A stretch of 41,441 nt of DNA, taken from a virus (Duplodnaviria; Heunggongvirae; Uroviricota; Caudoviricetes). The translations under genes and the position numbers were made by a program. The notes under the pieces were generated by a model. The model ran no database searches, was not told the DNA's origin, and saw nothing but the letters and a program-made list of their open reading frames with translations. Within the stretch, counting starts at the first letter, position 1. Each line of letters starts with the position of its first letter. Positions 1-41,441 of this stretch are shown in pieces. Where the stretch lies: IMG/VR virus record IMGVR_UViG_2541047739_000012; one strand, 5' to 3'.

Positions 1-585
1 TTACATTGTGTCTGGTTCTTCCGGCCACTCAATATCAGGTGCAGTTGATGTATCAACACGGTTCAGCAACACCCGATACTTCTTCCATGCTGCCAGCAAC
101 GACGCCTCTTCTTCCGTTGCGATCTCCAGATCCACAGCATCCTGAAGCGGCGCTATATGCTCACTGGCTACCTGCATCAGGCTGTTTTTTGTTTCTTCCG
201 CCTCCCGGATCCGGAACAGTTTTTCTGCTTCTGCATCTTTCACCCAGGCTGTGCCGTTCCACTTCTGAAACTCCCCTTCCGGGGATAACCAGGTGACATT
301 TTCCGGTAATGGGCCAAGTTCAGAAATAAATAACGCGTCGCCGGAAGCCACGTCATAGACGGTTTTACCCCGATGGTCTTCAACGAGATGCCACGATGCC
401 TCATCACTGTTGAAAACAGCCACAAAGCCAGCCGGAATATCTGGCGGTGCAATATCGGTACTGTTTGCTGGCAGACCTGTATGAGGCGGAATGTATGCGT
501 CACCTTCACCAATAAATTCATTAGTTCCGGCCAGCAGATTATAAATTGTTATGGTCCGTGGTTGTTCACTCATTCTGAATGCCAT
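1..585 (-). CDS. tfa: tail fiber assembly protein (Tfa)
   Basis: Complete 194-aa ORF (stop at 1-3, ATG at 583-585); start overlaps the upstream stop as TAATG; sequence recalled as lambda Tfa-like; sits directly after the side tail fibre gene. Confidence 0.85.
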
Positions 586-3500
586 TATGCGAGCCTCACA
601 ATGTAGTTAAATGCGATGTTTTTGACGGTGTTTTCCGCGTTACCAGCAGCGTTAACGGTGATGGTGTGTCCATGTGAACCAATCGCAACAGAGTGCGTAT
701 GAGCACCAATACCGACAGTATGCGCGTGTGCACCCGCAGATGCTGCTGTGCCGGACAGTGAGTGTGTATGGTTTCCTTCTGAAGATGATTTACCTACCCA
801 TTGGGAGGTGCCACTGGTTAATGAGCCACTGATACCAACCTGATTAGTCCCGCTAACTTGAGTACTCCCTGCCGGAAACATTCCAGTAGGTTGACTCCCG
901 CTATTCGTTCTGGGCCCAGTCTGACTATGTTGGTGGGCCCCAGCTGAACTTGTAGAGCCGCTCAGACTGTGCGTATGCGCCCCGGTGTTATTCGTGGATT
1001 TAGTGCCGTAATCAAACGACGATGTGGTTTTCGTCCCCAAATCAGTACTGGATGCGCTGGCGCTGTGGGTATGCGATTTAATGCCGTCCTGTTCCTGAGA
1101 CAATACGGCCCGACCACTGGCAGGTTTGCCCTTAATCGTCCAGCCACGCATATCAGGGATCACGCCTGACGGATAAGCGGCTGCAAGTTTCGGGTAAGCA
1201 GATTTGTCAAAAGTCTGCCCCTGCATCAGGGCATAACCAGACGGAACGGTATCTGATGGCCACGGGATTGGTGCGCCAACAGGGTAGCTTTCTGGTGGAA
1301 TATTTTTCGAGGTATAAACTTCTGCCCAGTCTTCCTCAAAACCATAGCCATCTCTTGAAGAACGGTAGAACAGACCACCATTTCTGTAATGCGCCTTCAT
1401 CTGCAGGGTCCGGCAACTTCCGACTCCGGTATAGAAGTTAACCAGAATATAGCTGTCGCCAGAGCGAGTGACATTGTAAGCGCCTGATTCGGCATTCCAG
1501 GGAACGCCACCATCCGCATCGGCATATGTATCCGTTGCCCTTCTGGCAAAAGCAGCCACATGCGCGGCGGTTAAAGTAATATCTTTGGAACCATCAAACT
1601 CAACACCAGAAACCCGTCTTGGCGTTTGCAGCTTTGTTGCTGTTAATGCATTACCGTTCAGACTTGCGGACAGTTTGGTTCCAATAACCAGTTCGCCGGT
1701 TGCGTTATCAATAGCAAACGGTCTTAATGTATTCCAGCCACCATAAACATCACCTTGATTGGTAAGCAGCAGGTAAGTTTTAGCGCCATCATTACGCCAT
1801 AATGCACCATACTCCCCACCTATCATTCGAATCTGATTACCACCACGCGCTACAATTTCGTCTGTGGCAAAAAGTTTTTTGCACGACAAGTTATCGTTAA
1901 CGATTAACGAATGAGACTCATAAAAACCACGCCCACTCTTAAAATCAAGGATAACGTCCGCCGCGATACATTCAGTCGCCGGATTTGTTGCCCCAAACTT
2001 ATAGGTCGTATCATTAACAACGAGATCAGCACCAGGTGCGGATATTGACAGGCCATCTTCGATAAACGCAAAAACAGGGAAAGCAGCGCCATCAACATAG
2101 AACACAGAGCGCAAATCATCACCCTTATTACTCATCATTATTGAGTGGATGGCTCGTTCATTGTTTTGATATTGCCAGAACATTCCATAAGCATAACGCC
2201 CCCTGTCAGTCCAGCCACCAGGCATAACAAATCCGTTAAACTCGCAGTTATTCATCGGATCGCCTGCGGTTCGCGTTGCCGTGGTGATAATGACCCTTGA
2301 TGCCAGTTCGCTTACTGAGCCAGCAGAACGCATAACAACAACAGGGTAATATTTTCCAGATGTTGCACCTGCAGGAGCGTTAACCCGCACATAACGCATA
2401 CCACGCTTATCAGCAAAGTCTGTTTTACTGACCGCGTTAATGTTGTTCAGGAAGCGTCCCTTATCGGGTATATCAGCGCCGTTCTGGTCTTTCTGCAGAC
2501 GTTTATCTGCATTGTCATAGGCTGATTTTACTGCCTTTGGCGTTGCCGCCAGCGTTTCAGACGTACTGTTGGTCGCACTGCTGAGCTGTACTATCCCCTT
2601 TTTCGTCGTACTTGCATCCTCAAGCGCCACGGCGGATGCAATATCCTCTGCCCGTTTAGCTGCTGTCTCGGCGCGCGTTGCCGCGGATTCCGCCGTACTT
2701 TTGCTCTGAGCTGCTGCCGTCGCACTGCCAGCAGCCTCTGTCGCCTTCGTGGATGCCGTCGTGGCGCTGCTCTTCGCTGCTGACGCCTGTCTGGTCGCCT
2801 CATCTTTTGAAGCAGACGCCGATGATGCCGATGACGCCGCCGAACTGGCGGACGATGCGGCAGCCGTTTCTGAGGATTCTGCGCTGGTTTCCGACGCTTT
2901 CGCGTTCGTTTCGGATGTCTTCGCTGCGGAAGCAGACCTCGCTGCTGCGCTGGCCTGTTCAGTGGCTTCGCCAGCCTTCGTTGTGGCTGTTGAAGCAGAC
3001 GATGCGGCACTTTCTGCCGACTTTCCGGCAGCGGTGGCACTGGCTGAGGCCTGCCCGGCACTTGTTGACGCGGCACTGGCAGATGATGCAGCCGCTGTTT
3101 TTGAGCCTGCCGCAGCTGAGGCGCTCTGTCCCGCTGCCGTCTCAGAAGACCTGGCGTTCGTCTCGGACGTTTTTGCCGCCTTCGCGGAATTTGCTGCCGC
3201 CGTTGCCGAGGAAGCTGCGCTACTGGCGCTCGAGAATGCGTTCGTTTCTGATGATTTTGCCGCCTCTTTTGAAGCCGACGCATCCCGGGCTGAGGTGGCA
3301 GCTTCTGACGCTTTCGTAGTCGCGGTGGATGCAGAAGTGGCGGCTGATTGTTGTGACGCTGCAGCATTCGTTTCTGACGTTTTCGCCGCACCGGCACTGG
3401 TAGCTGCCGCGCTTTTTGAGGACTCTGCAGCGGCAGCACTTTTTTCCGCTTCAGTGGCCTTTGTTGATGCCGTTCCTGCGCTGGAAGACGCTGACTGAGC

Positions 3501-4725: not shown

Positions 4726-7700
4726 TCAGCTGATACTGATACCTGCTGTGGATTTTTTCATCACCACAACCAGCAGATCGCTGATACTGGTTGTTGGTGT
4801 CCAGTTATTCGCTCCTGATGAAGATACGGTGAATGTCAGTGTCAGCGTCCCCTGTCCGGCAGGCATATCTATAACTGAGGAAAATACGCCCTGAGCATCC
4901 GTCGTGGACTGATTAAAAATCTCCTGACCATTGCGGGTCACTCTTAACCGGCAGGTTGAATACCAGTATGACTGTTGGTTATTACTGTTGAAATTCTCAT
5001 GCTTACCACCGCGGAATAACACTGGCGGTATCATGACCTGCCGGTCAAATTTCTGATCATCACTGATTCTTACCGTGATGGTGCCACTGGCATAACTGTT
5101 CGTGCGGGGGAAAGACTTGCTGACCGTTTTGACAATATCGCCTTCAATCTGATTGGCTGACAGTTTCCCCTTAATCTGACAGTTCTCATTAATCGTGACA
5201 TTGTTGAGCGTCCCGGAGTTCGCATTCACACTGCCACTGATATCCGCATTTTTAGCAGTCAGCTTTCCGTCCGGTGTCAGGGAAAATGCCGGAGGATTAC
5301 CGCCGCTGGTAATGGTGGGAGCCGTCAGATATTTCAGGAACACTTCATTCATGAATATCTGATCGCCCTGACCAACAAACATCGGCTTTGTGTTGCCATT
5401 CGCAGGATTAATCATCGCAATCCTGTCTGCCGCCAGCAGCACCTGACTCTGCATGCCGTCGGGGGTGTTCTCAATACCGGCACCGATACCCGCAATATAA
5501 AGGCGTCCGTCCTGCATCTGCTGCAGCTTCACTGCCCACATGCTGTTCAGGTTATTATTTGTATCAACCTGAACCTTCTGTATCTGCTGGATCGCTGCAC
5601 TCTGGTCTTCCAGTTTCTTATTGACGGTCTGTGTTATTTCATTGCTGACATCCGTTATGGACGTCCTGATTTCAGTCAGGTCAGGCGCAAGCTGACCGTT
5701 ATCAATCTGCGTCCACAGCTCCTGAGCCAGATGGGTTTTCCCTATCTCGCCTTTGAAAAAATCCAGATAGCCTGATGCATCATCACTCGGCTGACCGACA
5801 GCCTCCACGAATGCCGATTTGCCAACGGTGTTCACACTGCGAACGTAAAAATAATAATCATGGCCCGGTTTGATATTGATACTGGCGGCTATCCAGTACA
5901 GCGCCGTACCAAGATAACGCGCGCTGGTTTCAACCTGCCTGATATCGGCAATCCGCGTTTCCGAGAACCAGAACTCAAACTGTACCGTCGGATCATAAAC
6001 GGCAAGATGCGGTATGGCGGTTATCTGAAAATAGCCCGGCGTCAGCTCAATCCGCGACGGTGCTGCCGGTGCGGCAATCCGGAACGATACCGACGCCGGA
6101 TCGCCCTGCTGTCCCCACGCATTTACCGCCCGGACCGTCAGCGTGTAACGCCCCAGCGCCAGTTGCCTGAAGCGGTATGTGGTTTCCGTCGTCCGGGCCG
6201 TGCTGACCAGCCGCTCACTGCCGTCATCCGCTGTTACGGTCAGACGGAGCAGGAAGCTCACGCCCTTCACCACCTTCGGCGTGTCCCAGCGCGCCAGCAC
6301 CTGATATTCCCCGCTGTCTGCGGTGACTTCGGCGGTCAGGTGCTGCACCGCTGGCGGCGTGACACCATTCACCGTGCCGCTCTGGTCGCCGTCAAAGTGC
6401 GCCCCGTTATCCACGATGGCTTCTTTTTCCGGTACATGCTGCACGGCGGTGATGGCATACGTGCCGTCGTCGTTCTCACGGATACTCACGCAGCGGAACA
6501 GGCGCTGGCGCAGCGTCGGCAGCTTCAGCCCCCACACGCTGTATCCGGCAACGCCGTCAGGAACACGGCTCACTTTTACCTTCACGCCGTCGGTGACGGA
6601 CTGGACCTCCACGCTGACCGGATTGCCACTTCCGTCAACCAGGCTTATCAGCGTGGTACCGGAGGATGGCAGCGTGATTTCACGGTCGAGCGTCAGCGTC
6701 CGGGTCTGGCTGTCCACCGCCAGCACGCGCCCGCCGGTGCTGATACCGGCATAGTCATCATCGCAGATTTCAATGACATCCCCCGGTACATGGCGAAGCC
6801 CTTCCGCACCCACGCTGAAGTCCACGGTCTGCGTTTCCAGCAGTTCCGTTTTAATCAGCCACAGCCCGGCGCGGTGCGCCTGCCCCCGGCTGGTACAGCC
6901 AAAGGCATCCATCTTCGTGACGTTACGACCGTAACGGGCAATGGCCTGCGTATCTTCAACAAGCTCTGTCGCCGTCTCCCAGCCGTTATCCGGATCAATC
7001 CAGTTCACCTCAACGGCATTATGGCGGTCCTTCAGGGCGCTGAAGCTGTAGCGGAACGGCGCGCCATCATCCGGCATCACCACATTACTGCGGTTATAGG
7101 TCCACACCTTATCTGACTGTCGGTCCTGCACGAACGTCAGCGTCTGCCCGTTCCATACCGGCATACAGCGCATCGCCGAGCAGAAATCACTGAGCACATC
7201 CCACGCCTTGCGCTGTGTGGTCAGGTACGCATTACAGGTGATGCGCGGCTCCGTGCCGCCAAAGCCGTCCGGCACTGACTGGTCGCAATACTGGCCGATA
7301 ACATACAGCGCCCATTTATCCACATCTGCCGCACCAAGACGTTTCCCCATGCCGTAGCGCGGGTGGGTCAGCATATCCCACAGACACCAGGCCATGTTGT
7401 TGCTGTATGCCGGTTTTAACGTTCCGTCCCAGATACCGCTGTATTGCCGCGTCTGCGGGTTATAGTTCGACGGCACCTGCAGAATGCGCCCGCGCAGATG
7501 ATAATTACGGCTCACCTGCTGGCTGCCGAACTGTTCCGAGTCCACCTGCACGCCGACCAGTGCCGTGTTCGGGTAGCACTGTTTCACATCGATGATTTCG
7601 GTGTATGACGACCAGAGCGTTTTGTTCTGCAGCTGGTCTGTGGTGCTGTCCGGCGTCATCCTGCGCATCCGGATATTAAACGGGCGCGGCGGCAGGTTAT

Positions 7701-32324: not shown

Positions 32325-33395
32325 TTACCCCCTGAAGCCCGGCGGAATTTCGTTATCCGGTTCAGAAATATGATTCACACAACGCTGGTTGTTCGTGCCG
32401 CTTACCGGGAGCAACCAGGGGTTCTCAAAATTCCGGTCCGGTCCAAAAAACGTCGTCGCTCGCTGAACAAATTCCGTTCCCGTTTTCCCGGTAGCCGCCA
32501 AGTATCTTGCGTAACGCCTCACGCCATCCAGCATGGCCTCTGGTGGCACCCCCTCGCGTAATCTGGCCTTCCAGGCACTGAAAGCGGATTTCTTCGGGTT
32601 TGCTCCGGCACGCAACGGGTACTCCCGCCAGACCTGTTCGAACACATCCGGATAATCCACTCGTCCCACAGACTGCCCGGTGCTTTCCGGGACTACCCGA
32701 TCGGCTTCCCGCTGAATGGCGGAATCGGCTTCAGGCTGCTGCAGTTGGTGTGATTGCTCCGGCCTTGCGGTCATCACCTGCTGCACAGCGCCCGAATCGG
32801 CTTTCAGCGCATACGCTGAATCGGCTTCCGGTGTCGTGCCTGCTGGCTGACCAGGATTGACGGTCTGAACATCCCCTGCCTGGTTCGTGGCGTTTTTTAC
32901 GCCATGGACCATAGTGTTTTGATCTTCTTGATCTGTATCTTTATCTGTATCTTTATCTGTCGTGACTCGTCGTGACATGTGCGTGACATTTCGTGACGCG
33001 CCGTGACAATCGCCATTTTGTTCCCGCTTTCTTTCCCTCTCTCGCTGCGCCCTCTTGCGCTCTGCAGGAGATTTTGCGGTTTGCGAAATATTGCCGTTGT
33101 CCTCTTTAAGCACCTGGCGTTTTTCCCATCCAGTGATTAAATCACCATCAAGTACCCGCCCCTGCATCGTCTGCAAAATTGAATCAATTACCTCTTCTGT
33201 CACGTCGAGCGCACTTGCCAAATCTTCTGTCGTGACATCAATGTGACCTCGCGTGACATTTCGTGACGCGCTCACCAGGAGGTGGATATACACTGCCATC
33301 ACTGTTGCAATTGGCTGCCCTGACACCCTGGCAATTGTTCGCCACTTAGGGTCATTTGGCATGTCATGCCATAATCTGAGCCAGGCGTTAGCCAT
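32325..33395 (-). CDS. replication initiation protein (O-like) with origin iterons inside the gene
   Basis: ORF track 32325..33401; ATG at 33393-33395 (MANAWLRLWHDMPNDPKWRTIARVSG...) with SD AGAGGTGAG; contains two iteron clusters in its coding sequence; sits in the lambda O position after the CII-like gene. Confidence 0.6.
   Translation of the reverse strand: MANAWLRLWHDMPNDPKWRTIARVSGQPIATVMAVYIHLLVSASRNVTRGHIDVTTEDLASALDVTEEVIDSILQTMQGRVLDGDLITGWEKRQVLKEDNGNISQTAKSPAERKRAQRERERKREQNGDCHGASRNVTHMSRRVTTDKDTDKDTDQEDQNTMVHGVKNATNQAGDVQTVNPGQPAGTTPEADSAYALKADSGAVQQVMTARPEQSHQLQQPEADSAIQREADRVVPESTGQSVGRVDYPDVFEQVWREYPLRAGANPKKSAFSAWKARLREGVPPEAMLDGVRRYARYLAATGKTGTEFVQRATTFFGPDRNFENPWLLPVSGTNNQRCVNHISEPDNEIPPGFRG
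32921..33007. repeat. origin-like repeats: AT-rich tandem repeat plus five ~10-bp-spaced CGTGAC iterons
   Basis: atctgtatcttt repeated 2.5 times (32931-32960), then CGTGAC at 32961, 32971, 32982, 32992 and 33002 (spacing 10-11 bp). Confidence 0.65.
33229..33270. repeat. second iteron cluster (GTGAC repeats)
   Basis: CGTGAC/TGTGAC at 33231, 33243, 33252 and 33262; the 20-mer gcgtgacatttcgtgacgcg is repeated exactly from the first cluster (32981-33000 and 33251-33270). Confidence 0.65.
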
Positions 33396-36694: not shown

Positions 36695-39121
36695 ATGAGC
36701 ACTGATAAAGAAGAATTTGCACTATATTGCGAAGCAAAAAATGACAAAGTAAGAAAACGCCTGGGAATTAAAGGTGGTTTTTACTGGACTACAGCAAAAA
36801 AATTATCTGTTGCAATCTCCCGCTGCATTACCGCAATGGATGACAACGATTATGATGAAGACGACTTTAAAAAACCCGTCCGCGTCAATTTGCCCGTTGT
36901 TGACGACCTTCCGCCAGAAGGCGTGTTTGATACTGAATTCTGCAACCGCTATGAAAAAGGCGGGAAAGATGGCATCACAATGACATTTATCGGCCCTTCC
37001 CCCTCTGTTCGGGACAAACCAGCCAGCACTGACAATACCAACATCAACGGCGAAGACATGACTGAGATTGAGGAGAGCATGCTTCTGCCTGTCTCCGGTC
37101 AGGAACTGCCCATTCGTTGGCTTGCTCAACACGGCAGCGAAAAACCAGTAACGCACGTTTCACGCGACGAACTCCAGGCATTACACATTGCACGGGCTGA
37201 AGAACTACCGGCTGTTACTGCTCTGGCTATTTCGCATAAAACCAGTCTGCTCGACTCGCTGGAGATTCGCGACCTCCACAAACTGGTTCGTGACACTGAC
37301 AAAGTTTTCCCTAATCCTGGTAATTCAGACCTGGGACTAATAACTGCTTTTTTCGAAGCATACCTGGACGCTGACTACATTGATCGGGGTCTGCTGACAA
37401 AAGAGTGGATGAAAGGAAATCGTGTTTCACGCATCACCCGCACGGCTTCCGGTGCTAATGCTGGCGGTGGGAACAAAACCGATCGCAATCCGAATTTAGT
37501 ACACACCCTCGACACACTGGATGTGGAGATTGCAGCAGCCACACTTCCGGTGGATTTTAATATTTATGAAATTCCGGGCAGCGTTTATCGTCGCGCAAAA
37601 GAAGTAGTCCTGAAAAAAGAAAGTCCGTTCAAAGAATGGTCCGCAGCACTTCGTGCAACCCCGGGTATTCTGGACTATTCCCGCGCCGCTATTTTTGCAC
37701 TTATCCGAAGCGCACACCCTGAATTTTATCACTACCCGGGACGCCTTCAGGGGTATATCAACGCCTATTTGACGGAAACTGATCACGAGAACCCCAGCAA
37801 GGAAACTCTCACAGCTGCCCGGCATACGCCGGAAAAAGATATCCTGGAAGAAATTAACCGCGAGGTGGTTACTGAACGTGAAACAGAGGAAGAAAAACCA
37901 CAACCATCTGACGCAATGGCAGGTGAACAGGCAACAACTGAAACAATGGAACCGGATACAACTGAACATTGCCAGAACGCTCAGTCGCAGGTGAGTTCCG
38001 CTAACCAAGTAAAAGTCACCGCTGACGAAGTAAACAAAATTATGCAGGCAGCCAATATCAGCCAGCCTGACGCCGATAAGTTACTTGCTGTATCGCGTGG
38101 TGAATTTGTTGAGGGGATTAGCGACCCTAATGATCCGAAATGGGTCAAGGGGATCCAGACTCGCGATTCTGTGAACCAGAACCAGCATGAATCGGAACGG
38201 AACGACCAAAAAGCGGAACAAAACAGCCCAAATGCGTTACAAAACGAGCCAGAAACGAAACAATCCGAACCAGTAGCGCAACAGGAACCGGAAAAAGTCT
38301 GCACCGCCTGCGGTCAGAGCGGTGGCGGCAACTGCCCTGATTGTGGCGCGGTGATGGGCGACGCAACATACCAAGAAACATTCGATGAAGAGAATCAGGT
38401 TGAAGTTCAGGAAAATGATCCGGAGGAAATGGAAGGCGCTGAACATCCACACAAGGAGAACCCTGGCGGCAATCAGCATCACGCCAGCGATAATAAAACT
38501 GGCGAGGCGACAGATCCCTTAATTAAGGTGAATGGTCATCATAAGCTCACATCCACCAGCAGAGCGGGGATTCATCTGATGATCGACCTTGAAACCATGG
38601 GAAAAAATCCCGATGCCCCGATTATCTCAATAGGCGCAATATTTTTCGATCCACAAACCGGAGATATGGGACCGGAATTTAGCAAGACCATCGATCTGGA
38701 TACTGCTGGCGGAGTCATTGATCGTGACGTCATTAAATGGTGGCTGAAGCAATCACGTGAAGCGCAGTCTGCCATTATGACCGATGAAATCCCGTTAGAT
38801 GATGCACTACTGCAATTGCGGGAATTTATCGCCGAAAACTCCGGTGAATTTTTTGTTCAGGTCTGGGGTAATGGGGCCAACTTCGACAACGTGATTTTAC
38901 GCCGTTCATACGAACGACAGGGTATCCCCTGCCCGTGGCGCTACTGCAACGATCGCGATGTACGCACAATCGTTGAGCTGGGGAAAGCCATAGACTTCGA
39001 TGCCAGAACTGCTATCCCATTCGAAGGTGAGCGCCATAATGCACTTGATGACGCTCGTTACCAGGCAAAATACGTTTCAGCTATCTGGCAAAAACTGATC
39101 CCGAGTCAGGCTGATTTTTAA
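36695..39121 (+). CDS. large exonuclease with C-terminal DEDDh 3'-5' exonuclease domain (often annotated exodeoxyribonuclease VIII-like)
   Basis: 808-aa ORF; C-terminal DEDDh motifs (MIDLETMG; WGNGANFDNV; HNALDDARY); acidic low-complexity linker and zinc-ribbon-like CTACGQSGGGNCPDCG; located upstream of xis/int. Confidence 0.7.
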   Translation: MSTDKEEFALYCEAKNDKVRKRLGIKGGFYWTTAKKLSVAISRCITAMDDNDYDEDDFKKPVRVNLPVVDDLPPEGVFDTEFCNRYEKGGKDGITMTFIGPSPSVRDKPASTDNTNINGEDMTEIEESMLLPVSGQELPIRWLAQHGSEKPVTHVSRDELQALHIARAEELPAVTALAISHKTSLLDSLEIRDLHKLVRDTDKVFPNPGNSDLGLITAFFEAYLDADYIDRGLLTKEWMKGNRVSRITRTASGANAGGGNKTDRNPNLVHTLDTLDVEIAAATLPVDFNIYEIPGSVYRRAKEVVLKKESPFKEWSAALRATPGILDYSRAAIFALIRSAHPEFYHYPGRLQGYINAYLTETDHENPSKETLTAARHTPEKDILEEINREVVTERETEEEKPQPSDAMAGEQATTETMEPDTTEHCQNAQSQVSSANQVKVTADEVNKIMQAANISQPDADKLLAVSRGEFVEGISDPNDPKWVKGIQTRDSVNQNQHESERNDQKAEQNSPNALQNEPETKQSEPVAQQEPEKVCTACGQSGGGNCPDCGAVMGDATYQETFDEENQVEVQENDPEEMEGAEHPHKENPGGNQHHASDNKTGEATDPLIKVNGHHKLTSTSRAGIHLMIDLETMGKNPDAPIISIGAIFFDPQTGDMGPEFSKTIDLDTAGGVIDRDVIKWWLKQSREAQSAIMTDEIPLDDALLQLREFIAENSGEFFVQVWGNGANFDNVILRRSYERQGIPCPWRYCNDRDVRTIVELGKAIDFDARTAIPFEGERHNALDDARYQAKYVSAIWQKLIPSQADF

Positions 39122-39179: not shown

Positions 39180-39383
39180 ATGAGCAGCTTATTTTTAACC
39201 GAAGATGAATTGCTAATATTAACGGGCTGCAAATATGCAAGCCACCAGCGAAAATGGTTAATGGAAAACGGGCTTCCGTTCTATACCAATCGTAGTGGCA
39301 AACCGATTGTCAGCCGGGATCTATTTACCTGCAATAAAACTTTACCACCACGCGAGGTAGAGCCGAATTTTGGTGCGATCTGA
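39180..39383 (+). CDS. xis: excisionase-like small protein
   Basis: 67-aa ORF immediately upstream of and overlapping the integrase start (TGATG); call by position and size. Confidence 0.5.
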   Translation: MSSLFLTEDELLILTGCKYASHQRKWLMENGLPFYTNRSGKPIVSRDLFTCNKTLPPREVEPNFGAI

Positions 39384-40408
39384 TGGGAAGACGAAGGAAA
39401 AATCCTGAACACGAAAAATTACCTCCAAATGTATACCCAAATAAATATAGTTATGTATGGAAACCAACATCCAGAGAATCTGTCACACTAACCGCCATCA
39501 AGGATGGTTTAGCTGCTTTATGGAAAAAGTATGAGGAAACTGTAAATAATCGCGATCGTGCAATGACATTCGGTCGCTTGTGGGAAAAATTCCTCGCCAG
39601 CGCCTATTACAGTGACCTTAGTCCAAGAACACAAAAAGATTATCTGCAACATCAAAAAAAGTTGCTTGCCGTATTCGGTAAGGTACCAGCGGATTCCATA
39701 AAACCAGAACACATCCGTCGATACATGGACAAAAGAGGGGAGCAGAGTAAAACGCAAGCCAACCATGAAAAAAGCAGTATGTCCCGTGTTTACAGTTGGG
39801 GGTATGAGCGAGGGTACGTGAAGGCTAACCCATGTGCAGGTGTAAGTAAATTCAAGGCCAAAAACCGCGAACGATATGTAACCGACAAAGAATACCAGGC
39901 AGTATTAAGCGTTGCACCTCTTCCTGTTTTTATCGCAATGGAAATTGCCTATCTGTGTGCAGCGAGGGTTTCCGATGTGTTATCGCTGAAATGGGAACAG
40001 ATTGGAAACGACGGGATATTCATCCAGCAAGGGAAAACCGGAAAAAAACAGATAAAAGCATGGAGTCCACGATTACAGGCAGCGATCGAAAAAGCAAAAC
40101 AGTTACCAAAATCTGCCTATGTGATCAGCAATCAATACGGCAACCGATATATGTACAAAGGCTTTAACGAAATGTGGGTAGAAGCAAGAAATCGCGCAGG
40201 CAAAATTTCAGGTATTTTAACCGACTTCACCTTTCATGATCTGAAGGCGAAAGGAATTTCAGACTATGAAGGAAGCAGCCGGGATAAGCAACTTTTCTCT
40301 GGTCACAAAACCGAAGGGCAAGTGCTAATCTATGACAGAAAGGTTAAAGTTTCACCAACACTTGATGTCCCGTTACCTGAAAATATTCCAAGAAAATATT
40401 CCAAGTAA
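39383..40408 (+). CDS. int: tyrosine integrase
   Basis: 341-aa ORF with an N-terminal arm-binding-like basic region and a C-terminal catalytic domain (…HDLKAKGISDY…, …LIYDRK…); adjacent to a tRNA gene. Confidence 0.9.
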   Translation: MGRRRKNPEHEKLPPNVYPNKYSYVWKPTSRESVTLTAIKDGLAALWKKYEETVNNRDRAMTFGRLWEKFLASAYYSDLSPRTQKDYLQHQKKLLAVFGKVPADSIKPEHIRRYMDKRGEQSKTQANHEKSSMSRVYSWGYERGYVKANPCAGVSKFKAKNRERYVTDKEYQAVLSVAPLPVFIAMEIAYLCAARVSDVLSLKWEQIGNDGIFIQQGKTGKKQIKAWSPRLQAAIEKAKQLPKSAYVISNQYGNRYMYKGFNEMWVEARNRAGKISGILTDFTFHDLKAKGISDYEGSSRDKQLFSGHKTEGQVLIYDRKVKVSPTLDVPLPENIPRKYSK

Positions 40409-40415
40409 TTCCAAG
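40382..40415 (+). repeat. three direct repeats ATTCCAAG spanning the integrase stop (candidate Int arm-type sites)
   Basis: ATTCCAAG at 40385, 40398 and 40408 (spacings 13 and 10 bp), followed by the short palindrome GTGA-ttttt-TCAC. Confidence 0.4.
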
Positions 40416-40460
40416 TGTGATTTTTGTCACTGACTTAATGATGTGTAAGTGATTGAATTT

Positions 40461-40550
40461 TGGCGGAGAGAGGGGGATTTGAACCCCCGGTGGAGTTGCC
40501 CCCACTCCGGTTTTCGAGACCGGTCCGTTCAGCCGCTCCGGCATCTCTCC
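40461..40550 (-). tRNA. serU: tRNA-Ser (anticodon CGA), host gene serving as prophage attachment site
   Basis: 90-nt minus-strand cloverleaf with long variable arm: acceptor GGAGAGA, anticodon arm CCGGT-CTCGAAA-ACCGG, T-loop TTCAAAT, CCA; its 3' end faces the integrase 53 bp away. Confidence 0.85.
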
Positions 40551-40643
40551 GTTCAGATGGTTGCCATGATGCCAGGAAATTTGGCATTTTAACAGTCCCT
40601 GTCCGTGCAATTTTGTTCAAGTGACGAGTTTGCGAGCAAAACG

Positions 40644-41441
40644 ATGATTAAGTGGCCCTGGAAAGTACAAGAATCAGCACATCAAACTGCCCTTCCCTGG
40701 CAGGAAGCACTATCGATCCCCCTTTTAACGTGTCTGACAGAACAGGAACAAAGCAAATTGGTCGCTCTTGCCGAACGTTTTTTACAGCAAAAACGGCTTG
40801 TTCCTTTACAGGGCTTTGAGCTGAATTCATTAAGAAGCTGCCGGATAGCACTTCTATTTTGCCTGCCCGTTCTGGAGTTAGGACTGGAATGGCTGGATGG
40901 TTTTCATGAAATCTTAATTTATCCTGCGCCATTTGTGGTCGATGATGAATGGGAAGACGATATCGGTCTGGTGCATAACCAACGTATTGTTCAGTCAGGT
41001 CAGAGCTGGCAGCAAGGGCCTATCGTTTTGAACTGGTTGGATATACAAGATTCTTTTGATGCTTCTGGTTTTAACCTGATTATTCATGAAGTCGCTCATA
41101 AGCTGGACACCCGTAACGGCGATCGCGCCAGCGGAGTTCCCTTTATTTCGTTGCGTGAGGTTGCTGGCTGGGAACACGATCTTCATGCTGCAATGAACAA
41201 CATTCAGGAAGAAATCGAATTAGTTGGTGAGAATGCGGCGAGCATTGATGCTTATGCTGCCAGTGATCCTGCTGAATGTTTTGCCGTACTTTCTGAATAT
41301 TTCTTTAGCGCCCCAGAACTTTTTGCTCCTCGTTTCCCTTCATTGTGGCAACGTTTCTGTCAATTTTATCAACAAGATCCTTTGCAGAGACTGCATCACG
41401 CTAATGATACAGACTCGTTTTCGGCGACGAATGTTCATTAA
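40644..41441 (+). CDS. mtfA: Mlc titration factor A (host gene)
   Basis: ATG at 40644 ([20 protein letters not shown]...) to TAA at 41439-41441; recalled as E. coli MtfA; contains the HEVAHK metallopeptidase-like motif; different codon usage from the prophage. Confidence 0.85.

Follow-up and report, generated by a model that had tools for sequence, protein, structure and literature searches.

The window, by which we mean the whole 41,441-bp stretch of DNA that was analyzed, carries near its right end an excisionase-like gene for a recombination directionality factor (39180–39383, + strand; Pfam DUF4224, E = 1.9e-15; PHROG phrog_1266 “excisionase,” E = 3e-21). Directly 3′ of it lies int (39383–40408, + strand), a gene in the open reading frame list that encodes a 341-aa tyrosine integrase of the lambda-Int type, with matches to Pfam PF00589 (E = 1.4e-11, over the curated cutoff), PF22022 and PF14659. 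At the int stop codon (TAA, 40406–40408), three repeats are found in direct orientation on the + strand, consisting of two copies of AATATTCCAAG (40382–40392 and 40395–40405) and one of GTAATTCCAAG (40405–40415), at approximately −130, −117 and −107 from the center of the anticodon in the tRNA gene that follows. All three contain the 8-mer ATTCCAAG. The second repeat ends 1 base before the TAA and the third overlaps it, with the 8-mer of the third beginning on the last base of the stop codon, in agreement with the initial annotation, which had placed three repeats over the integrase stop.

Beyond the repeats, positions 40416–40460 form the phage-derived spacer of the int-proximal arm. The end of this spacer (40446–40460; AAGTGATTGAATTT) is imperfectly like the DNA natively found downstream of serU (K-12: AAGTCATTGATAAAG). 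Similar sequence was also seen downstream of the tRNA in other Enterobacterales. A scan for an intrinsic terminator supplied by the phage for serU gave no convincing candidate. The tRNA gene itself, serU (40461–40550, − strand), was called as a tRNA-Ser with the anticodon CGA by both ARAGORN and Rfam (57 bits vs. a threshold of 29). It is convergent to int, and its 3′ end lies 53 bp past the int stop on the opposite strand (40461 vs. 40408), exactly as had been annotated. From 40523 to 41441 (+ strand), comparison with K-12-type sequence and RefSeq annotation identified host chromosome, comprising the 5′ part of the tRNA, the region upstream of serU, and mtfA (40644–41441), the next gene; RefSeq annotation of the matching genomes makes this the serU–mtfA locus.

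Residues 1–313 of the integrase align with full-length lambda Int (1z1b). The aligned portion includes a homologue of the N-terminal arm-binding domain (MGRRR..LPPNVY), with the phmmer alignment starting at residue 1 in both proteins. Arg195, the Lys in GKTGKK, His285, His308, and Tyr317 all align with lambda Int residues. The full R-K-H-R-H-Y signature was not found, as box II reads HDLK and the catalytic Arg311 of lambda Int aligns with Lys288 (40244–40246), a residue that was invariant in all of the clade members examined (7/7). A Lys in place of the catalytic Arg311 is unusual in an active enzyme. The Lys clade includes phages that were deposited as complete genomes, among them ST64B, KpF5, and ZF40, the last of which came from an induced lysogen.

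To define the attachment site, we aligned the window with an uninterrupted serU–mtfA locus and, as the other prophage end, with that of a near-identical lysogen, much as the initial annotation had proposed. The seven sequences compared were the window, four contiguous attP, the far junction of E. coli 4/0, and a K-12-type attB, in which the order of the empty site is yodB–serU–mtfA. This alignment revealed a 62-bp block of identity (40461–40522), or core in the broad sense, that is common to attP, attB and both junctions. The block begins at the 3′-terminal CCA of the tRNA and reaches as far as base 2 of the anticodon-stem 5′ strand (40522, nucleotide 29). The int gene adjoins the junction in the window. 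In E. coli 4/0, whose int–tRNA–mtfA stretch is 99.8% identical to the window, the far prophage end consists of host flank, then a 62-nt fragment (TGGCGG...GAGACCG), then phage DNA (ATGATACAG...), and far-junction matches in further genomes stop exactly after 62 nt. The duplicated core that had been anticipated at the other end of the prophage is thus present in a near-identical lysogen. The displaced tRNA fragment also occurs at the far ends in further lysogens, with ~1570 extra partial copies among 5426 E. coli records.

A search of the 41,441-bp window for a further copy of the 3′ part of the tRNA gave none, which places the other junction outside the window, where it had been predicted to lie. 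Among the genomes of our collection, none matched the left end of the window (1–2400) at ≥99%, with the best match (98%) involving widely shared tail-fibre genes and yielding no usable far junction for this exact prophage. Because that junction lies beyond the window, the host allele that preceded integration was inferred from other lysogens.

We predicted attP by joining the phage arm of the window to the distal arm of E. coli 4/0. An attP-specific 81-nt pattern was matched exactly in three IMG/VR viral contigs, while eleven E. coli genomes contiguously held at least 80% of the 316-nt attP. In one of the eleven, strain noe1104, attP is situated between int and tail-fibre genes, an order that we read as a tandem prophage array. 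The contiguous attP in these contigs and in the eleven genomes, noe1104 included, carries the tRNA segment. Several other candidates were set aside as attP evidence. ON470580 is a “partial genome” cut-out with mtfA and other host genes still inside, and ON470583, whose match is truncated like that of ON470580, was left unused. mEp332, ev099, and PhiR70_1 match both the core and the distal arm, yet what they carry is a fossil far junction, in which ~300 bp of host flank lies inside the phage b region, next to an annotated integrase (356 codons), and not the attP of this phage.

We next consider the allele carried by the tRNA. Compared with the common E. coli (K-12) allele, the tRNA in the window differs only at the two ends of the span 40492–40503, with G at 40492 (host A) and C at 40503 (host T). 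These positions correspond to tRNA nucleotides 59 and 48, which pair with each other at the third position of the stem of the variable arm, and the change is a compensatory one from A-U to G-C. The variant pair is paired in the minimum-free-energy cloverleaf, which was the same for both alleles, with folding energies of −42.6 kcal/mol for G-C and −40.6 kcal/mol for A-U. From 40523 on, the window was identical to K-12-type sequence over the stretch compared. The expectation that differences from the host allele, including compensatory changes in the variable arm, would be confined to the 3′ part of the tRNA was therefore borne out; rather than a tRNA identical throughout and a far end with no duplicated core, the comparison yielded these two differences and the far-end core of E. 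coli 4/0.

The two alleles were cleanly partitioned in the seven-way alignment, with G/C in the window and in 4/4 attP, and A/T in the displaced fragment and in attB. Since both variant positions have the phage bases at the int-side junction and the host bases at the far one, the exchange of strands must fall within 40504–40522. In cloverleaf coordinates, this 19-bp interval covers the 3′ strand of the anticodon stem (40507–40511), the loop (TTTCGAG, 40512–40518; anticodon at 40514–40516), and four of the five bases of the 5′ strand of the stem. We infer that strand exchange occurred in the 7-nt anticodon loop itself. As judged from these alignments, tRNA nucleotides 1 to ~35 (40550 to ~40516) are assigned to the host, and nucleotides ~36–90 (~40515 to 40461) to the phage. 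The initial annotation, which had the phage integrating into the 3′ portion of the tRNA and supplying a replacement, was right in this respect, as attP carries the tRNA segment and G/C travels with the phage while A/T is displaced. It was also right that the 3′ part of the tRNA is the phage's, but the limit it gave, about 40500, fell ~15 nt short of the ~40515 indicated by a crossover within 40504–40522.

Counts from the E. coli population point to an association between the G/C allele and the phage that is strong, though not absolute. Among 5426 complete E. coli genomes, 1135 (about a fifth) have int next to serU–mtfA, while in the other genomes similarity to the window, as seen in BLAST matches from empty sites, begins only at 40446 or 40453. 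The G/C tRNA was present in 1179 records of this set, and 4246 records fell in the 95–99% band, in which the sampled rows were all at 97.8%, corresponding to A/T. Among the IMG/VR loci with this int, 59/60 carried the G/C tRNA, and at locus L084 this int lies beside an A/T tRNA. serU was unoccupied in ~3856 genomes, and in ~108 genomes, or ~2.8% (108/3856) of the empty sites, host flank was joined straight to the G/C allele with no prophage, an arrangement that we inspected directly in YD786. By subtraction, ~1071 of the 1179 G/C records were not joined to host flank in this way, vs. 1135 genomes with int at serU. The presence of G/C in ~108 unoccupied sites means that G/C alone is no proof of phage origin. 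The same 62-mer was also found in genomes of Brenneria, Rosenbergiella, Pluralibacter, Entomohabitans, and Enterobacillus, where integrase remnants lie beside some of the loci, and at least one locus has mtfA synteny and no integrase match.

The G/C empty sites could represent either an old polymorphism or the scars of prophage loss. In the latter case, homologous recombination confined to the first 31 bp of the 62-bp repeat would have removed the prophage. A check for recombination scars by way of hybrid alleles identified the hybrid (A..C) in one genome only. We regard as possible, but rather doubtful, the combined proposition that the phage's version of the 3′ part of serU serves as a vehicle for allele replacement, with the ~108 G/C empty sites being scars of prophage loss, and that, as a separate matter, the integrase clade uses Lys for the second catalytic Arg.

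We also considered whether the G-C variable-arm allele might be native to the host lineage, in which case the tRNA would be uninformative on phage supply and the contribution of the phage would be neutral with respect to sequence. Such an origin would accommodate both the prophage-free G/C sites with host flank, such as that of YD786, and the 62-mer in other Enterobacterales genera, including the locus with mtfA synteny and no integrase match. We nonetheless judge it very unlikely, as G/C was found in all four of the contiguous attP aligned and A/T in the far-junction fragments, the great majority of G/C records (~1071/1179) were not host-flank joined, and so few of the empty sites were G/C. 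Even if the host had been G/C, positions 40461 to ~40515 would be physically phage-derived, given the mapped crossover.

With a phage-supplied 3′ part as our preferred reading of the tRNA, we turn to the repeats at the int stop. ATTCCAAG has exactly three copies in the 41,441-bp window, all on the + strand (40385–40392, 40398–40405, and 40408–40415), the first two of which are each part of a 13-bp unit, GAAAATATTCCAA, repeated exactly in tandem. This count is unremarkable for the window as a whole (1.76 copies expected; 27/100 shuffles reach 3), and the signal lies instead in the clustering of the three copies within 31 bp. In an 8.3-kb locus (L008), all five TTCCAAG 7-mers lie in attP, and none elsewhere in the locus, at positions −129, −116, and −106 (direct), +47 (inverted), and +113 (direct) from the center of the anticodon. 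The copies at −129, −116, and −106 are the three repeats of the window, while those at +47 and +113 are on the other arm of attP. The distal-arm copies were kept in two attP variants (L052 and L075) despite diverged surroundings, and L052 has four proximal copies.

Related phages carry different motifs in corresponding places. Chris1 (TATACCAA) and KpF5 (TTTTCTCA) each have their own motif within 1–3 bp of all five positions, and ST64B (TTTTCTCA) has its motif at four of the five, with one mismatch in the +47 copy. KpF5 and ST64B have both their N-terminal integrase sequence and their motif in common, and the same is true of Chris1 and Evi; across these lineages, the motif follows the N-terminal domain. 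Repeated arm-type motifs occur on both arms of attP, apart from the core, as in lambda-type sites. Motifs whose position is conserved on both arms while their sequence changes bear the signature of protein-binding sites, rather than that of coding constraint or chance, and arm-type sites are to be expected for an Int that is homologous to lambda Int, including its arm-binding N-terminus. Most likely, then, the three ATTCCAAG repeats are proximal arm-type Int sites. They had been annotated as direct repeats of the attachment region, and they do belong to attP, but they fall outside the core, ~105–130 bp from the crossover, where arm-type sites are the probable identity. As for IHF, the distal arm has two matches to its consensus, one at +25 and one at +80, and no match was detected in the 41-kb window; the strict consensus was not found in the relatives.

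We weighed this reading against the possibility that the ATTCCAAG repeats arose incidentally, through duplication by slippage in the part of int that encodes its non-conserved C-terminal tail, and play no role in recombination. Slippage would fit the exact 13-bp tandem duplication of the first two copies, the variation in copy number (four in L052), and the fact that the number of copies, three of an 8-mer in 41 kb, is by itself not significant. We give this explanation very little credence, however, in view of the two additional copies, one of them inverted, that persist amid divergence on the other attP arm, and of the different motifs that occupy the same five positions in relatives. Moreover, the repeats of KpF5 and ST64B lie wholly 3′ of the int stop, so protein coding cannot explain them, and the C-terminal tails of Int are not conserved; a gain of 13 bp shifts the frame, indicating that the tail peptide is not under constraint.

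Taken together, the explanation that best accounts for these observations, and one that we consider very probable, is that the region represents the int-proximal junction of a lambdoid prophage in serU, with a phage-supplied tRNA 3′ part and with the ATTCCAAG copies, interpreted as arm-type sites, at the end of int. In lambda nomenclature, this junction is B-O-P′, or attL; in the orientation in which the window is presented, it lies on the right. Under this model, attP carries a 62-bp copy of the tRNA, extending from the 3′ CCA end to the anticodon stem, and the anticodon stem-loop is where the lambda-type integrase would swap strands. Once the phage had integrated, the host would provide tRNA nucleotides 1 to ~35 along with the promoter, and the phage would provide nucleotides ~36–90 along with the downstream sequence. 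Because the phage would supply both the 3′ part and the DNA downstream of it, the tRNA gene would stay intact, and the original 3′ part of the host gene would be left at the far end of the prophage as a 62-nt fragment. Both strands of the variable arm, together with the T arm, would be on the phage side, and the phage copy can therefore carry the compensated G-C pair. The three proximal and two distal repeats would be bound by the N-terminal domain of Int, and the recombination complex would be assembled on these arm sites, presumably with the help of IHF and of the excisionase encoded next to int. To judge from the junction products, the system works like lambda Int despite its Lys288.

This layout corresponds to the lambda plan applied to a tRNA gene, with xis-int, three proximal arm sites, core, and two distal arm sites. 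The arm sites of lambda are P′1–P′3 and P1–P2, that is, 3 + 2, and here, likewise, there are three direct proximal arm repeats (13 and 10 bp apart) at the int end and two repeats on the other arm. Further likenesses to lambda are the heterobivalent integrase, homologous over its full length, the excisionase gene directly upstream of int, and the matches to the IHF consensus on the distal arm. Unlike lambda, whose site is intergenic with a short core, the target here is a tRNA gene with a 62-bp block, and the tRNA fragment, lying in between, puts 105–130 bp between the crossover and the proximal arm sites. The arm motif (ATTCCAAG) and the Lys at the position of catalytic Arg311 also set this system apart from lambda.

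Among the relatives, ST64B (Salmonella), KpF5 (Klebsiella), and Chris1 (Citrobacter), all three deposited as complete genomes, encode integrases of the same clade that are 57–60% identical to that of the window, and each carries a 62-nt tRNA-Ser(CGA) fragment ending in ...GAGACCG and targets serU. They differ from the window in that KpF5 and Chris1 have the A/T variable-arm allele, while the tRNA-Ser(CGA) fragment of ST64B has another sequence, which is presumably that of Salmonella, and in that none of their motifs is ATTCCAAG. Evi, with an integrase ~56% identical, uses serT and has its tRNA fragment in the opposite orientation to int. mEp390 and ZF40, with integrases 47–50% identical, follow the same plan with a tRNA 3′ fragment, apparently of tRNA-Leu, that ends in the anticodon loop. 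In Evi, mEp390, and ZF40 alike, a motif peculiar to the phage recurs on both arms.

Restoration of a split target tRNA by the integrating island is the principle behind island finders, and anticodon-centered sites have been described (PMC4383910). The site reported here has no essential difference from the anticodon-centered “A” sites of Williams and the Islander database (PMC4383910): the tRNA is restored, the regenerated tRNA and the displaced 3′ fragment mark the ends, and the anticodon stem-loop, within which the exchange is bounded, is where the block of identity begins. We assign next to no probability to an exchange in the T loop, where the T stem meets the acceptor stem, or immediately past the 3′ end of the gene, with the long identity serving as accessory homology. 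Among tRNA-targeting islands, sites in the T loop and at that junction do occur about as often as anticodon-centered ones (PMC4383910), and attP/attB similarity runs on imperfectly for ~15 bp beyond the tRNA 3′ end. However, had the strands been exchanged in the T arm or 3′ of it, the intact tRNA would have kept A/T and the displaced fragment would carry G/C. The allele partition is the reverse of this and excludes such an exchange; in addition, the hybrid allele occurs in only one of 5426 records and the identity blocks of the relatives all end at the same anticodon-stem base.

Integrases of the heterobivalent kind, together with arm-type sites, have been described (PMC2951348). In the IntS–TorI system of KplE1/HK620 at argW (PMC2951348), as here, the prophage resides in the 3′ part of a tRNA gene and P′ arm-type sites lie in the int-proximal junction, where they have been mapped in KplE1. 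KplE1 differs in that its int promoter overlaps attL and its int is autoregulated, whereas in the window int converges on the tRNA gene, the arm sites are overlapped by the end of int and not by its promoter, and the order of xis and int is that of lambda. serU is itself a documented prophage locus and hot spot in E. coli (PMC7067040, PMC8065619).

The arrangement is thus of an already known kind, a textbook mechanism at a known hot spot, and the main value of these findings is for annotation. They fix the right boundary of the prophage, with phage DNA ending within 40504–40522, identify serU in this strain as a probable host-phage chimera, and explain the repeats at the stop codon as likely elements of the recombination site and not as a coding oddity. 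They also offer a guide to where attP and its five arm repeats can be sought in related phages of serU, serT, and tRNA-Leu, with the repeats at about −130, −117, −107, +47 (inverted), and +112 from the anticodon. Should the G/C empty sites prove to be scars of prophage loss, temperate phages would permanently rewrite a host tRNA gene.

Within the tyrosine integrase of lambda Int type (window positions 39383-40408), we found that box II reads FHDLKAKG, placing Lys288 (40244-40246) at the alignment position of the catalytic Arg311 of lambda Int, while the remaining five catalytic residues are conserved relative to lambda Int. Sequence comparison showed this Lys to be invariant in the integrases of KpF5, Chris1, ST64B, Evi, mEp390 and ZF40. 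We also noted that the integrase encoded by two Stenotrophomonas phages (OM816834 and OM816835) shares 62% identity with the enterobacterial enzyme described here; Stenotrophomonas was an unexpected host for this integrase clade. Directly upstream of xis-int lies a gene for an 808-aa protein (36695-39121) with an exodeoxyribonuclease VIII region at its N terminus and an Rv2179c-like 3′-5′ exoribonuclease domain at its C terminus. The prophage interior also holds a cluster of four tRNA genes on the minus strand (Gly(TCC), Thr(TGT), Lys(TTT) and Met(CAT); 24950-25259), and the 21-nt sequence GCGTGACATTTCGTGACGCGC is repeated exactly, in direct orientation, at 32981-33001 and 33251-33271, 270 bp apart.

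Among the database loci compared, the attachment region itself was found in variant forms. Locus L052 (~2500-2560) carries four proximal arm repeats at the integrase stop instead of the usual three, having gained one 13-bp unit, a gain that also puts the C-terminal tail of the integrase into another reading frame. At two other loci (L055 and L070, ~2579-2900), the proximal arm and core of the window phage adjoin another distal arm, one bearing the motif TTTTCTCA, and the tRNA identity extends 5 nt further (ending in GAGACCGGTCC). We consider these two loci to be probably tandem arrays in which the partner is a second type of serU-targeting phage.

On the host side, we compared the zinT-serU interval between loci L001 (29766-30435) and L002 (1574-3016). 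The distance from zinT to the serU site is ~1.4 kb in K-12 versus ~670 bp in strain 4/0, a near-identical lysogen, and in YD786, whose serU is unoccupied; K-12-type strains have yodB in this interval, while no yodB is annotated there in 4/0 and YD786. A fossil form of the far junction was present in the phage records mEp332 (L004, 2040-2400), ev099 (L104, ~5730-6273) and PhiR70_1, positioned in the b region with tail-fibre genes on one side and an annotated integrase (356 codons) on the other. Its parts are ~300 bp of flank from the E. coli yodB-serU intergenic region, the 62-nt piece of tRNA-Ser with the host A/T pair, and the serU phage's distal attP arm. This junction looks like an earlier capture of host flank through aberrant excision or recombination.

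The partition of variable-arm alleles between host (A/T) and phage (G/C) at the third base pair (40492/40503) had one exception at integrase-linked loci: at L084 (~2579-2670), and at no other IMG/VR locus, the integrase adjoins a full serU with the A/T allele, possibly derived from gene conversion between the repeats. We also found the G/C allele joined to native host flank at unoccupied serU sites, as in E. coli YD786 (L093, 2850-3120), in ~108 genomes; a hybrid A..C allele was seen in a single genome. Many of the listed genomes with an unoccupied G/C site are alike in chromosome size and coordinates, which suggests that they represent few lineages. These unoccupied G/C sites may be scars of prophage loss, or else an old polymorphism.
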